A stretch of 5,362 nucleotides of DNA, taken from the IMG/VR virus record IMGVR_UViG_2617270946_000017; one strand, given 5' to 3'. Below are positions 1,618 through 4,609 of this stretch, in pieces (within the stretch, counting starts at the first letter, position 1; every line of letters begins with the position of its first letter). The notes below the pieces were generated by a model. That model had not been told where the DNA came from. It did no database searches and was given only the letters and a program-made list of their open reading frames with translations. Source of the DNA: a virus (taxonomy: Duplodnaviria; Heunggongvirae; Uroviricota; Caudoviricetes). A program made the position numbers and the translations under genes.

Positions 1618-1911
1618 ATGGACAATCATGTAACGACGAGAAATCGAAAAATGATTGAAAATGCGGAAATCTATAATGATTATTTTTCCGATTATTCAGA
1701 TGCCTGCAAATACAGTTCGAGTGCGGGAGAGTTCATATGCTTCAACTTTTTTATTAAATCTTATGTTTTTCCTCCACAGCAAGAAGATGGAGGTGTGCCA
1801 CCTCCTGAAATCACTTTGCACCGTATAGCCTCCGTCTCAATGATGGAGCAACAGGCTAATGAGCTGTATAGCATTCTGGGAACGATTCTACAAAAGCGTG
1901 AATCGGACTAA
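1618..1911 (+). CDS. Hypothetical protein, 97 aa, AT-rich codon usage, no recognisable family
   Basis: ATG at 1618 preceded by AAGAGG (1607-1612) with 5-nt spacing. Divergent from com-mom and convergent with the small-gene cassette. No motif recognised by eye. Confidence 0.4.
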   Translation: MDNHVTTRNRKMIENAEIYNDYFSDYSDACKYSSSAGEFICFNFFIKSYVFPPQQEDGGVPPPEITLHRIASVSMMEQQANELYSILGTILQKRESD

Positions 1912-2046
1912 TGATACCGGTTCATTTGCCTGCCCGGATGGGGAAGCAGGATTGACTGCTCCATAAGCAGCTATATTTCTGAATACGAAATACTATCCAG
2001 CGATTACATATGGCTGGATAGCGGCAAAGATGTTTTCATTAGTGTC

Positions 2047-2072
2047 AAACCGGCAGAGGACACCACCGGTTT
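2047..2072. terminator. Candidate bidirectional terminator hairpin between convergent genes (AAACCGG - 12-nt loop - CCGGTTT)
   Basis: 7-bp stem 2047-2053 / 2066-2072. On the plus strand it is followed by GTATTGTT (U-rich); on the minus strand it lies just after the stop of the 84-aa ORF (2079). The stem is short, so termination would be weak. A second perfect hairpin lies at 1993-2021 (CTATCCAGC - 11 nt - GCTGGATAG). Confidence 0.35.
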
Positions 2073-2078
2073 GTATTG

Positions 2079-2333
2079 TTACATCATGGTACTGTCAGTT
2101 CCGGGCTGAGCCGGGTCTGGTTGCTCTGGCTGCGCGTCGGTTTTCGGCTCATTATCAGCATCACTGGCCGCAACTGCTGGCCCAATAAGTTTTGCCAGCA
2201 CTTCATCAACGTAAGTGTCGATTTGTGCCTCAAAATCCTTGCGGACCTGCGCTTTCAGCAACTTATTTACTTCACCGGAATACAGTGCCTGTTTTACCAG
2301 GTCTTCAGTGACGGTGCCTTTAATTTCTGGCAT
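2079..2333 (-). CDS. Hypothetical small acidic protein, 84 aa (helical N-terminal part, Asp/Glu/Pro-rich C-terminal tail)
   Basis: ATG at 2333 preceded by a near-consensus SD AAGGAGG with 7-nt spacing. About 16 acidic versus 8 basic residues. Lies 35 nt downstream of the 60-aa ORF, suggesting a two-gene operon. Confidence 0.6.
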   Translation of the reverse strand: MPEIKGTVTEDLVKQALYSGEVNKLLKAQVRKDFEAQIDTYVDEVLAKLIGPAVAASDADNEPKTDAQPEQPDPAQPGTDSTMM

Positions 2334-2368
2334 GTATATCCTCCTTATGCGGGAATAAAGCCCTGCAA

Positions 2369-2551
2369 TCAGGGCTGGGTCGGGTCTTTTGGGAGCGGAG
2401 TTACCTGCGCTGTTTTACTGAGTTTTTCAGCTGCTGCGTCCTCAATTTTGCGGCGAACATAATTTCTGATGGCCTTATAACCACCACTCACCAGATATAA
2501 CGCACATACTGCCGTGCAGAAATACAATAAAATAAGCTGTAAAAATGTCAT
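2369..2551 (-). CDS. Hypothetical small membrane protein, 60 aa (one predicted N-terminal transmembrane helix followed by a basic/charged tail)
   Basis: ATG at 2551 preceded by GGAGGG (3-nt spacing). Residues 2-24 (TFLQLILLYFCTAVCALYLVSGG) are hydrophobic, followed by YKAIRNYVRRKIED.... The six-frame call starting at 2563 uses an upstream TTG; the ATG with SD is preferred. Confidence 0.55.
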   Translation of the reverse strand: MTFLQLILLYFCTAVCALYLVSGGYKAIRNYVRRKIEDAAAEKLSKTAQVTPLPKDPTQP

Positions 2552-2646
2552 TATCCCTCCCAATTATTGACATGGTGTTGACACCGGTAATATCTGTTAG
2601 GTAAAAAGGTGCACTGCATTTTTTGCTTTGGATATAACGATCTTTT

Positions 2647-2688
2647 TGCCGCCGGTTTCTTGTTTTCCCTTACCGGCGGCATTTTTTT
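2647..2688 (+). terminator. Strong rho-independent terminator-like hairpin oriented for plus-strand transcription (10-bp GC-rich stem TGCCGCCGGT / ACCGGCGGCA, 15-nt loop, T7 tail)
   Basis: Perfect 10-bp inverted repeat 2647-2656 / 2672-2681 followed by TTTTTTT 2682-2688. On the minus strand the hairpin is flanked by A-runs, so it is not a canonical terminator for the esterase gene that ends at 2696. Confidence 0.55.
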
Positions 2689-2695
2689 ATCCTGC

Positions 2696-4609
2696 TTACG
2701 CGTTATTCACTTCCACCACGATACTGTCAATCAGTACCGGGTAAGTCGCATTTTTAGTGATATCGGTCACGCGCAACTTGTCTGCCGTAAACGTGCCGAC
2801 CGGAGACTGCGACAGCATGAATGGTGTCCCGTCCTTACCATCAATGACCGGCGTCACCTCAATACTGTTGTTACCGGCAAAACGGAAGCCCAGCGTATGC
2901 CATTCGTTATTAAATGCGCCGAATGACCCCAGCTTCGTGTTCTGCGCCGTGTTTCCTTTGTGATACATCACGTTAAGGTCTGTGGCATCGCTCTGTACGT
3001 AGAACGATGCCAGCAGGTCCGCACCATTACCAGCATCATGCTCAAGGTACCAGGGGGCTCTTCCTGTTTCCTTGGTCAGTTTCATTGCCTTACCCCCGCT
3101 GGCTCCGGCATCATCCACGATTTGAGCCTTGCCACCTCCGGCAGCCCAACCCTGTGGTGTCAACCGTCCTTCAGACTCAGATGCCCGGTAAGCAAATAGC
3201 GTACTCATCGTCGTGGTGTCTGCGGGTGGCGTGGACGGTTTTGATGGTGTATCAGGTGACGGCTTCTCATCCGGTGGTGTCACGGTCTGCCCGCGCATCA
3301 GTTCAGCCGTGCGCCCTGCATGGAGCATAATAGCTGAGGCCAGACGGTCTGAAATGACGCCCCTGCGTGCCCATGAGCTGAAATGGCTGTCACGCTGTGT
3401 CGAAACAAAACTGCCCTGGGTTCGGGATGCTGCACCGTAATACCCGACAGCCACAATATCCGGGTCTTCCGCCGGAGCATTCGTTGGCGTGCTCTGTCCA
3501 TTCTCATCCGTCAGGAACGGTACAAAGAAAATTTTCTGTGCTTCCTTGCCTTTGTAGCCACCGTATACTGCCTCATATTTATCGGTGCCAGCGTTTTTCC
3601 AGTAATACGTGGTATCACCGCAAATCCACGGCACCGTGGTGGCATTTCCACTCACGCACTGCGCAGCAAGCGGAGCCAGGTCAGTTCTGAACTGCTGAAC
3701 CATGGTCGTGAATAAACTATTATGCTGCTGGCTTCCTGAGGCAAGGTCTGCCTCTCCCTGCATCCAGACCACAGCCAGAAGTTTGTTTTTCGGGTTTTTC
3801 GCCAGCGCGACTTTGGTGCGGCTTACCAGGTCCTGATACAGAGGTTTACCGGCCCCCCAGCGTGAAGAATCAGCGGAAGCACCGCTGGCCTCACTGAATG
3901 AGCCGTCGGCTCCAGTGGTGAATGCTGACCCGCCACGACAACAGGGCACCAGAAGTATCCCGGCATTCTGTGGGATATAGGGAAGCAGTTTTTTGGCAAT
4001 ATGCAACCCCTGACCGACAGTCCCGTACTGGCCTTTTGCCAGATCAGCTTTCGGGTGGTTTATCCCGCTCATATCCTGAACATCATGCAGGCAGTGGTCT
4101 GCCGGAATGATGTCGTTGTATGTACACGACGTACCGTTGGGCGTTACCGTACTGCGGCGTGCCAGTTGCTTAATGCGTGGGTCCGGGCGGTCAAACGAAT
4201 CCGGTAACGGCAGCCCCTCGCCGTAGGCCATGCCATTTGACTGACCCGCGAGAATGACAACAAAGTAATATTCCGGCTCTGAACTGCTGCCATTCGTGCT
4301 ACCGGAAGGCCCGGCGTTATCCGGTGCATTCCAGTCGGAGGGCGTGAGCGTTCCGGCCACGTCAGATGTGATTGGAATGATGCCAGTCACGCCTGAACTG
4401 GTGATTTCTGCACTGGGATTACCGGATACCGGCATTACCCATAATGGCTCTTTCGTGCTGAAGCGGATCACGCAGTCTGCGAAGGTGATCCCCCCTTTAT
4501 TACCCGAAGGGCGGAAAGGGCTTTCAATAAATGCCACCGTGCCACCGGCAACCTTGACTGAAAACTCTCCGGGCATGGCGGAGAGCATTTTCCACTTGGA
4601 GTCTGACAT
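2696..4609 (-). CDS. SASA/SGNH-family carbohydrate esterase (putative sialate O-acetylesterase-like, prophage NanS-p-like), 637 aa: N-terminal beta-rich domain, central esterase domain, Pro/Ser/Thr linker, C-terminal putative carbohydrate-binding domain
   Basis: GQSN motif (codons at 4235-4246, residues 122-125, in VVILAGQSNGMAYGEG) and WMQGEAD (residues 282-288) are the signature blocks of the SASA-type SGNH esterase family. A DSH triad candidate lies near residue 407. Linker TPPDEKPSPDTPSKPSTPPADTTT (3209-3283) is followed by a roughly 170-aa C-terminal domain. Single long ORF with no internal stops. The ATG at 4609 has only a weak SD. Confidence 0.8.
   Translation of the reverse strand: MSDSKWKMLSAMPGEFSVKVAGGTVAFIESPFRPSGNKGGITFADCVIRFSTKEPLWVMPVSGNPSAEITSSGVTGIIPITSDVAGTLTPSDWNAPDNAGPSGSTNGSSSEPEYYFVVILAGQSNGMAYGEGLPLPDSFDRPDPRIKQLARRSTVTPNGTSCTYNDIIPADHCLHDVQDMSGINHPKADLAKGQYGTVGQGLHIAKKLLPYIPQNAGILLVPCCRGGSAFTTGADGSFSEASGASADSSRWGAGKPLYQDLVSRTKVALAKNPKNKLLAVVWMQGEADLASGSQQHNSLFTTMVQQFRTDLAPLAAQCVSGNATTVPWICGDTTYYWKNAGTDKYEAVYGGYKGKEAQKIFFVPFLTDENGQSTPTNAPAEDPDIVAVGYYGAASRTQGSFVSTQRDSHFSSWARRGVISDRLASAIMLHAGRTAELMRGQTVTPPDEKPSPDTPSKPSTPPADTTTMSTLFAYRASESEGRLTPQGWAAGGGKAQIVDDAGASGGKAMKLTKETGRAPWYLEHDAGNGADLLASFYVQSDATDLNVMYHKGNTAQNTKLGSFGAFNNEWHTLGFRFAGNNSIEVTPVIDGKDGTPFMLSQSPVGTFTADKLRVTDITKNATYPVLIDSIVVEVNNA

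Follow-up and report, generated by a model that had tools for sequence, protein, structure and literature searches.

What kind of cargo has been placed between the invertase gene gin and the com-mom genes of a Mu-like prophage, and at which stage of the phage life cycle is it expressed? The question is raised by the viral record IMGVR_UViG_2617270946_000017, of which a stretch of 5,362 nucleotides (nt), referred to here as the window, was analysed over its whole length. In this window 3,333 bp separate the stop codon of gin (4695) from the start of com (1361). The original prediction had described an accessory insert of about 3.3 kb with four open reading frames (ORFs), i.e., an esterase and three small genes, and had proposed that it represents a moron or a defence or anti-defence hotspot. 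The interpretation favoured here is that the cargo is probably a self-contained, late-transcribed accessory unit, consisting of a NanS-p-type esterase gene and two small genes, that lies between the tail-fibre/gin region and com-mom. The nanS-p cassette is a familiar kind of phage cargo that occurs here in a new context, and it is not a defence island.

The predicted size and surroundings of the insert were confirmed. Mu has a gin-com interval of 94 bp, and the Mu-like prophage of Escherichia coli SE11 one of 82 bp; Edwardsiella, Pantoea, and an Enterobacteriaceae metagenome-assembled genome contain Mu-like prophages in which it amounts to approximately 120-300 bp. Pfam matches and alignment to Mu identified the flanks as gin and com-mom homologues (Table 1), which occur in Mu order together with a gix-like site. 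All four ORFs between gin and com were found at their predicted positions, and none of them encodes a classical Mu function. Neither direct nor inverted repeats bordering the 3.3 kb were found, and nothing thus indicates that the segment arose by a discrete insertion or that it is an invertible unit. In the collection of papers that was searched, none connected NanS-p with Mu-like prophages.

The esterase and its companion genes

The 637-amino-acid (aa) protein is, by homology, a NanS-p-type sialate 9-O-acetylesterase of the SGNH (SASA) type. Searches with phmmer against the PDB matched residues 110-428 with E. coli NanS (PDB 3PT5, E 1.6e-117) and residues 469-636 with the crystal structure of the NanS-p C-domain (PDB 6YP6, E 1.9e-68), while Pfam recognised SASA (52 bits versus a cut-off of 24.8) and DUF6645. 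In an eight-sequence alignment Ser124 in the GQSN motif is invariant, as is His409; both are aligned to NanS and are presumably the catalytic residues, as reported with the NanS structure. The chromosomal NanS of E. coli (YjhS) shares the homologous catalytic domain with the conserved GQSN serine and histidine, but it is a single-domain protein that belongs to the nan regulon, whereas the protein in the window is phage-borne and has additional N- and C-domains. Esterase homologues were found in 349 phage records, mostly of Shiga toxin (Stx)-converting phages, at approximately 60% identity, which is also the level of identity to NanS-p of 933W (L0105/z1466). The gene has a G+C content of 55%. 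NanS-p enzymes are prophage-borne esterases that cleave Neu5,9Ac2 and O-acetylated mucin glycans (PMC8065619), and the protein in the window would, by homology, remove 9-O-acetyl groups from sialic acids, e.g., Neu5,9Ac2 on mucin glycans.

The two genes that follow encode proteins of the DUF1378 and DUF826 families. The DUF1378 product has one hydrophobic helix and an isoelectric point (pI) of 9.3, and is a single-pass membrane protein, and the DUF826 product is acidic and soluble. Ratios of nonsynonymous to synonymous substitution rates (dN/dS) of 0.14 for DUF1378 and 0.08 for DUF826 indicate purifying selection. The genes run from Q to the esterase, DUF1378, DUF826, holin, and lysozyme in the lambdoid prophages L031 and L032, which are those of an O157:H7 strain and a mouse strain, and DUF826 and DUF1378 have been described between nanS-p and S (PMC10462455). 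Moreover, DUF1378 and the 3' end of the esterase gene display 86% nucleotide identity to an O157 lambdoid prophage. As the three genes have the same order as in lambdoid and Stx prophages, the block in the window represents an established unit that is encountered here in another type of phage. It differs from NanS-p loci of Stx and lambdoid phages, including 933W and phi24B (vb_24B_21/gp84), in its location between tail-fibre/gin and com-mom, the lambdoid gene being located between Q/stx and holin. The main part of the cargo is this already known nanS-p/DUF1378/DUF826 block, not an unknown esterase accompanied by orphans.

The block is fixed in one Mu-like lineage. Of the related E. coli loci, all seven that derive from complete genomes or phage records (L001, L003, and L025-L029, representing TOE17, FORC_069, STEC299, 2003-3014, M3, CI5, and a Mu-like phage inside the Stx2c phage LC727881) carry esterase, DUF1378, and DUF826 at this position; in M3 and CI5, which are without gin, the block is located directly 3' of the tail-fibre genes. 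All 22 IMG/VR contigs that encode the esterase's N-terminal domain have a Mu-like context, and the full block is present in each of the 14 that reach far enough, 13 of which have mom and one a methyltransferase. An esterase with a 30-40% identical N-domain is encoded downstream of the invertase, at the same position, in a Mu-like prophage of Salmonella enterica. The three-gene block is absent from Mu, the SE11 and XJ6-3 prophages, and 19 loci of other genera. Among 5,426 complete E. coli genomes, com-mom of this lineage was present in approximately 226, with a coverage of at least 80% of its length and, in nearly every case, an identity of at least 90%. Many of these are O157 or other E. coli that produce Shiga toxin (STEC), and in the carriers that were sampled, esterase and DUF826 are listed between com and a recombinase. 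Being present throughout the lineage and absent elsewhere, the block is accessory for Mu-like phages overall, as originally predicted, and core-like in one lineage. The original prediction had considered that these genes might turn out to be universal core genes, which applies to all sampled members of the E. coli lineage but not to Mu, SE11, or other genera. As a candidate link, this lineage probably corresponds to the Sp18 type known from O157 Sakai (PMC2669165).

Predicted late transcription and the state of this copy

The spacer between gin and the esterase gene contains a 14-nt box and a downstream hexamer, TATTCT, which sits 36 nt before the esterase start codon, and together these elements are predicted to form a late promoter. 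A search for the box with up to 2 mismatches in L033, a complete relative of 40 kb, gave exactly three matches compared to 0.48 expected, and 1 of 100 shuffles of this sequence reached three matches. All three sites are on the late-gene strand in intergenic gaps, and a hexamer, TACGCT, TATGCT, or TATGAT (TAyGmT), lies 22-23 nt beyond each of them. They are located ahead of the lysozyme gene, directly after a Mor-family activator gene; ahead of the Mu-like head gene I, adjoining the major head gene T; and ahead of the esterase gene. The lysozyme and I sites are taken to correspond to Plys and PI of Mu. Two types of upstream sequence that have diverged elsewhere both retain the box, and so do relatives that have no gin. 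The Mu late promoters Plys, PI, PP, and Pmom are reportedly activated by C, in work ascribed to Margolin, Rao and Howe (1989). The predicted promoter resembles them in having a conserved box ~22 nt upstream of a -10-like hexamer and no -35 consensus, and differs from them in the sequence of the box, as expected for a diverged activator, and in representing a predicted fifth location, ahead of the esterase. Such a Mu-type late promoter would also set the gene apart from lambdoid nanS-p, which depends on pR' and Q antitermination. A scan for consensus sigma-70 promoters and terminators performed no better than chance and was rejected.

At the other end of the block, two strong, terminator-like hairpins lie between the convergent DUF826 and orf97 genes (minimum free energy -33.3 kcal/mol, z -4.96, none of 200 shuffles being as stable). 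The box of its own and the hairpins after DUF826 suggest that the block is read as a separate late transcription unit. It would be transcribed late in lytic growth from an activator-dependent promoter whose box is common to the promoters preceding the lysozyme gene and head gene I, and the DUF1378 membrane protein and the acidic DUF826 protein would be produced after the esterase from the same unit. Late transcription would imply that the enzyme is made with the virions and released at lysis, either free or virion-bound, and is not produced by the resting lysogen. A G+C-rich hairpin between esterase and DUF1378 is a possible terminator of antisense (plus-strand) transcription; this hairpin lies inside the segment of homology to lambdoid prophages.

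The opposite expectation, that the resting prophage expresses the esterase as a lysogenic-conversion moron and thereby enables the lysogen to grow on 9-O-acetylated sialic acids from mucus, corresponds to the role proposed for NanS-p in STEC (PMC8065619). Low-level read-through in the lysogen is possible, as gin, which is on the same strand, ends 85 bp before the esterase gene and no terminator could be recognised in the interval. This explanation is nevertheless considered unlikely, because the box upstream of the gene is the one preceding the lysozyme gene and gene I, because the gene is always found inside late-gene blocks and in late orientation in lambdoid, P2-like, and Mu-like prophages, and because nanS-p expression rises with the late genes upon induction of Stx lysogens (PMC10462455). 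In addition, nothing like the hydrophobic stretch of a signal peptide was seen at the N-terminus when the esterase sequence was inspected. The earlier suggestion of a moron expressed by the lysogen is therefore not retained, since the shared box makes the block appear wired into the late programme of the phage.

P2-like prophages are a third phage type with the esterase inside a late operon. The enzyme encoded in E. coli sequence type 131 (ST131; EC958, phage P88 type; L057 3851-5728 in EC958, and L056) is 53% identical to the window protein from the catalytic domain onwards. It differs in its DUF1737-SASA-DUF6645 architecture and in the location of its gene between the lysis genes and the tail genes R/S. 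NanS-p has so far been studied almost exclusively as cargo of Stx phages that benefits the metabolism of the lysogen. The esterase looks like a module that different types of phage plug into their own late programme.

Several observations weigh against a late-transcribed, functional esterase unit in this prophage. The promoter is a short motif that was derived from the window and checked in one complete relative, where one of its three matches is the homologous esterase site itself. No copy of the box was found where the tail-operon promoter would be expected, and the match upstream of com-mom (1483..1470) was obtained only with 3 mismatches and was rejected as being within chance expectation. 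DUF1378 and DUF826 are absent beside the esterase of P2-like prophages, and the catalytic assignment of the window protein derives entirely from homology. The other observations concern this particular copy. Its esterase lacks 47 aa of the C-domain as compared to NanS-p, corresponding to residues 488-534 of 933W NanS-p and including the equivalents of Y510 and Y515, for which, together with two further aromatic residues, a role in carbohydrate binding was proposed (PMC10462455). Furthermore, the prophage end in the window (336-349) reads AGTATAGCGC, with AG where intact relatives have TG. The 47-aa deletion and the AG end suggest that this copy may be decaying.

The deletion comprises 141 bp in the lectin domain. 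In relatives (684 aa; compare L001 11356-13410) the 9-bp repeat ACCTGCTGG is present at both edges of the segment that is missing from the window. The window protein compares with 679-710 aa in relatives, which according to the alignment keep the complete lectin-like C-domain, and the deletion is unique to the window, being absent in 11 full-length IMG/VR copies and in the E. coli loci that cover the region. The window esterase is therefore probably impaired in glycan targeting, as judged from sequence comparison. Prophage ends were compared for the window (336-349), L001 (8999-9010), L025 (1509-1520), and L033 (71-90); the terminus of intact relatives reads TGTATAGCGC and is accompanied by a target duplication of 5 bp, GATGA. 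The right end of the FORC_069 prophage reads AATATAGCGC. A terminal TG is normally needed for Mu transposition, and the prophage in the window may therefore be immobilised. Taken to its conclusion, this would mean that the cargo in this genome is a decaying remnant in an immobilised prophage and that the esterase is non-functional, in agreement with the loss of head genes from the closest relative, L001. However, the deletion is in frame, the catalytic domain including Ser124 and His409 is intact, and so are all other ORFs of the region, which makes complete loss of function rather doubtful, although less so than expression by the resting lysogen.

Exchange of the N-terminal domain

The N-terminal part of the esterase sets the Mu-like proteins apart from other NanS-p enzymes. 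Lambdoid and P2-like homologues begin with DUF1737, which consists of a helix and three strands (bioRxiv 10.64898/2026.04.10.717836), whereas residues 1-108 of the window protein matched no Pfam or PHROG family, and no DUF1737 match was obtained even at E <= 1. AlphaFold, when supplied with the eight-sequence alignment, predicted that residues 1-80 are all-beta, with a predicted local distance difference test (pLDDT) score of ~80-88, and that they are followed by a disordered linker; a model of the whole esterase from the single sequence (pLDDT 32) was discarded. Fold searches with the N-domain yielded generic cupin or jelly-roll barrels only, and searches of large protein libraries yielded fragment matches only. 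The model suggests that a lineage-specific beta domain of ~80 residues, unrelated to DUF1737, takes the place of the latter.

Evidence for exchange comes from the lambdoid nanS-p gene of strain 8178, which is 91-94% identical at the DNA level from codon 111 to 24 nt beyond the stop codon. The protein encoded by strain 8178 carries DUF1737, in contrast to the Mu-like proteins. The identity starts at codon 111, with the first residues of the catalytic domain, and recombination has therefore replaced everything except the N-domain and linker. The alignment thus shows a recent recombination between Mu-like and lambdoid nanS-p alleles, with a breakpoint located exactly at the N-terminal linker. In two further loci (L034 754-3734 and L039 3545-6520) an esterase with the Mu-type N-domain is joined to a lambdoid-type DUF1378 gene and a class II holin gene, and in L039 com-mom is found inverted further along (10831-11719). 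These arrangements suggest either that nanS-p copies belonging to different prophages underwent recombination or inversion with each other, or that the contigs are chimeras of the assembly. Overall, recombination between the nanS-p copies of different prophage types within one genome appears to be ongoing.

A function of the exchanged domain can be proposed on the basis of a 2026 cryo-electron microscopy (cryo-EM) preprint, according to which the DUF1737 domain of phi24B gp84 decorates the capsid by docking on the hexons of Stx podoviruses (bioRxiv 10.64898/2026.04.10.717836). By analogy, the N-domains of NanS-p proteins might be exchangeable virion anchors, and the beta domain of the Mu lineage might anchor the esterase on a Mu-type virion, a proposal that is tentative and on balance doubtful. 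If true, Mu-like particles would carry a sialate O-acetylesterase, made from a dedicated late promoter, that acts on gut mucus, and such an enzyme would be to these phages what receptor-destroying esterases are to influenza C virus and coronaviruses.

The predicted late expression and the position of the gene just 3' of the tail-fibre module would also suit an enzyme that targets O-acetylated glycans on the bacterial surface, such as O-antigen or a sialic-acid capsule, and that aids adsorption or release rather than acting on mucins. This possibility was raised before (PMC8065619), and SGNH/SASA domains occur in annotated phage tail proteins (phrog_25867; an Arthrobacter phage minor tail protein). 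It is considered improbable here, because the catalytic and lectin domains are those shared at the DNA level with the lambdoid prophage enzyme, and because the family members that were tested act on Neu5,9Ac2 and mucin (PMC8065619). Moreover, the N-domain displays no similarity to the tail proteins of the same prophage or to solved tail-fibre adaptors, and has no paralogue in this prophage or in Mu.

The sub-slot beside com and the prophage end

Next to the fixed cassette, and separate from it, an AT-rich sub-slot by the com promoter carries exchangeable small genes, represented here by orf97. At least two types of content were distinguished: type A, with orf97, in the window, TOE17 (L001), M3, and CI5 (L028, L029), and type B, with other small orphans, in L003, L025, L026, and L027. 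The orf97 gene has a dN/dS of 0.36, and AAGAGG, 5 nt before its ATG at 1618, is a good ribosome-binding site. It is found in E. coli and Shigella only and gave no Pfam, PHROG, NCBIfam, or PADLOC match; orf97 is a real gene and an orphan. No convincing promoter was found for the sub-slot. The sequence TGAATACCGCAAA at 1545-1557 (+), upstream of orf97, was evaluated as a late-promoter box and rejected, as it is one base shorter and has the wrong spacing; its distance to the -10-like TATAGA is 19 nt, versus 22-23 nt for the late boxes, and the resemblance may be due to chance.

The vicinity of the anti-restriction gene mom, the replacement of mom by a C5-cytosine methyltransferase in some relatives, the AT-rich sub-slot with its alternative small orphans, and the purifying selection on orf97 could all be expected of a defence or anti-defence hotspot, in which the cargo guards the lysogen from phages or the phage from host defences. 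However, three of the four genes constitute the nanS-p block, i.e., a carbohydrate esterase with its companions; this block is fixed and not variable across the lineage, and no ORF gave a meaningful PADLOC match: the esterase, DUF1378, orf97, and the alternative small ORFs gave none, and a match of DUF826 to PbeC (E 0.0076, 12.9 bits) was taken as noise. A defence role of the cargo is therefore very unlikely, and of the hotspot originally proposed, only the 0.6-kb sub-slot (1471-2078) is upheld as behaving like a moron hotspot. The late esterase unit is thereby distinguished, as a fixed cassette, from a small variable slot for orphan genes beside com-mom.

Table 1. Coordinates of features in the window (strand given where applicable).
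Feature	Position	Strand	Description
Host malX, 3' end	1-339		Phosphotransferase system (PTS) maltose transporter IICB
Right end of Mu-like prophage	340..423		malX junction at ~340/341
mom	470..1207	-	245 aa; Pfam Mom, E 1.6e-77; 78% identity to Mu Mom
com	1161..1361	-	66 aa; Pfam Zn_ribbon_Com; 44% identity to Mu Com; same start in RefSeq
Conserved com-mom upstream region	1362..1470	-	109 nt; 88-100% identity in all relatives; sequence beyond diverges
Variable AT-rich sub-slot	1471..2078		~0.6 kb, 40% G+C; at least two unrelated contents in relatives
orf97	1618..1911	+	97-aa acidic orphan, convergent with DUF826; frame intact in relatives, 81% nucleotide identity
Two strong hairpins, terminator-like	1993..2072 (2072..2047, 2022..1993)	-	Between convergent DUF826 and orf97
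DUF826 gene	2079..2333	-	84 aa, pI 4.2; Pfam DUF826, E 6e-16
DUF1378 gene	2369..2563/2551	-	64 aa from TTG (2563) or 60 aa from RefSeq ATG (2551); Pfam DUF1378, E 1e-31
G+C-rich hairpin, 10 bp	2648..2680	+	Between esterase and DUF1378; A7 before and U7 after on the plus strand
Esterase gene (NanS-p-type sialate O-acetylesterase, by homology)	2696..4609	-	637 aa; PDB and Pfam matches
Esterase lectin-like C-domain	3205..2699	-	Residues 469-637
Junction of 141-bp in-frame deletion in lectin domain	3010..3018	-	One copy of 9-bp repeat ACCTGCTGG left
Esterase Pro/Ser/Thr-rich linker		-	Residues 429-468
Esterase SASA catalytic domain	4279..3326	-	Residues 111-428
Esterase linker	4369..4280	-	Residues 81-110
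Esterase N-domain	4609..4370	-	Residues 1-80
Predicted late promoter	4645..4686	-	Box TGAATTTCCGCAAA (4686..4673), 22 nt, TATTCT (4650..4645)
gin-type DNA invertase	4695..5267	-	190 aa; Pfam Resolvase and HTH_7; 74% identity to Mu Gin
gix-like site, edge of invertible tail-fibre segment	5339..5362		23/24 nt (96%) identical to Mu 35008-35031, the G-segment boundary
Gene order, Mu orientation			gix-like site, gin, esterase, DUF1378, DUF826, orf97 (opposite strand), com, mom, prophage end, malX

A transposable prophage has inserted into malX, and the window contains its right end; all genes except orf97 are on the minus strand. This end resembles the right end of Mu in the order and strand of gin, com, and mom, the gix-like site, and a probable transposon-type end, and differs from it in that Mu has no esterase, DUF1378, DUF826, or orf97. 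Matches to the window in 20-odd complete E. coli genomes begin at 338-342, and the host flank differs in each of them, as expected for a transposable phage. Two 23-nt direct repeats near the prophage end (366-388 and 401-423) look like candidate transposase-binding sites. The malX gene is interrupted by the prophage at about codon 419, a site at which the prophage is absent from all 5,426 complete E. coli genomes. In strain TOE17 the neighbouring genes are of Mu-type tail-fibre, baseplate, lysis, and Mor-family functions. An Rfam search of the window gave no match.

Many relatives are without gin (L028 7446-7751, L029 7432-7737, L038, L039, L043, L046, and L052-L054). Their homology to the window extends up to 4761, so that the last 66 bp of gin and the predicted promoter box are kept, and gin appears to have been lost by a deletion that fixed the orientation of the tail-fibre segment. 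The methyltransferase that replaces mom after com (Pfam DNA_methylase, E 2e-42; L003 1405-2457, L051 5248-6297, and H167) represents an exchange of one DNA-modification gene for another under the same com control region. The Mu-like prophage of XJ6-3 (L059), which has neither gin nor esterase, contains an additional hypothetical gene of 167 aa (5373-5876) between mom and the prophage end, which is a different accessory slot. Finally, GATC sites are found upstream of com at 1409 and 1422, with a third at 1491 (1491-1494). The palindromic GATC cluster at 1405-1429, 45-70 nt upstream of com, partly resembles the mom control region of Mu with its three Dam sites, but is located much nearer to the com start.

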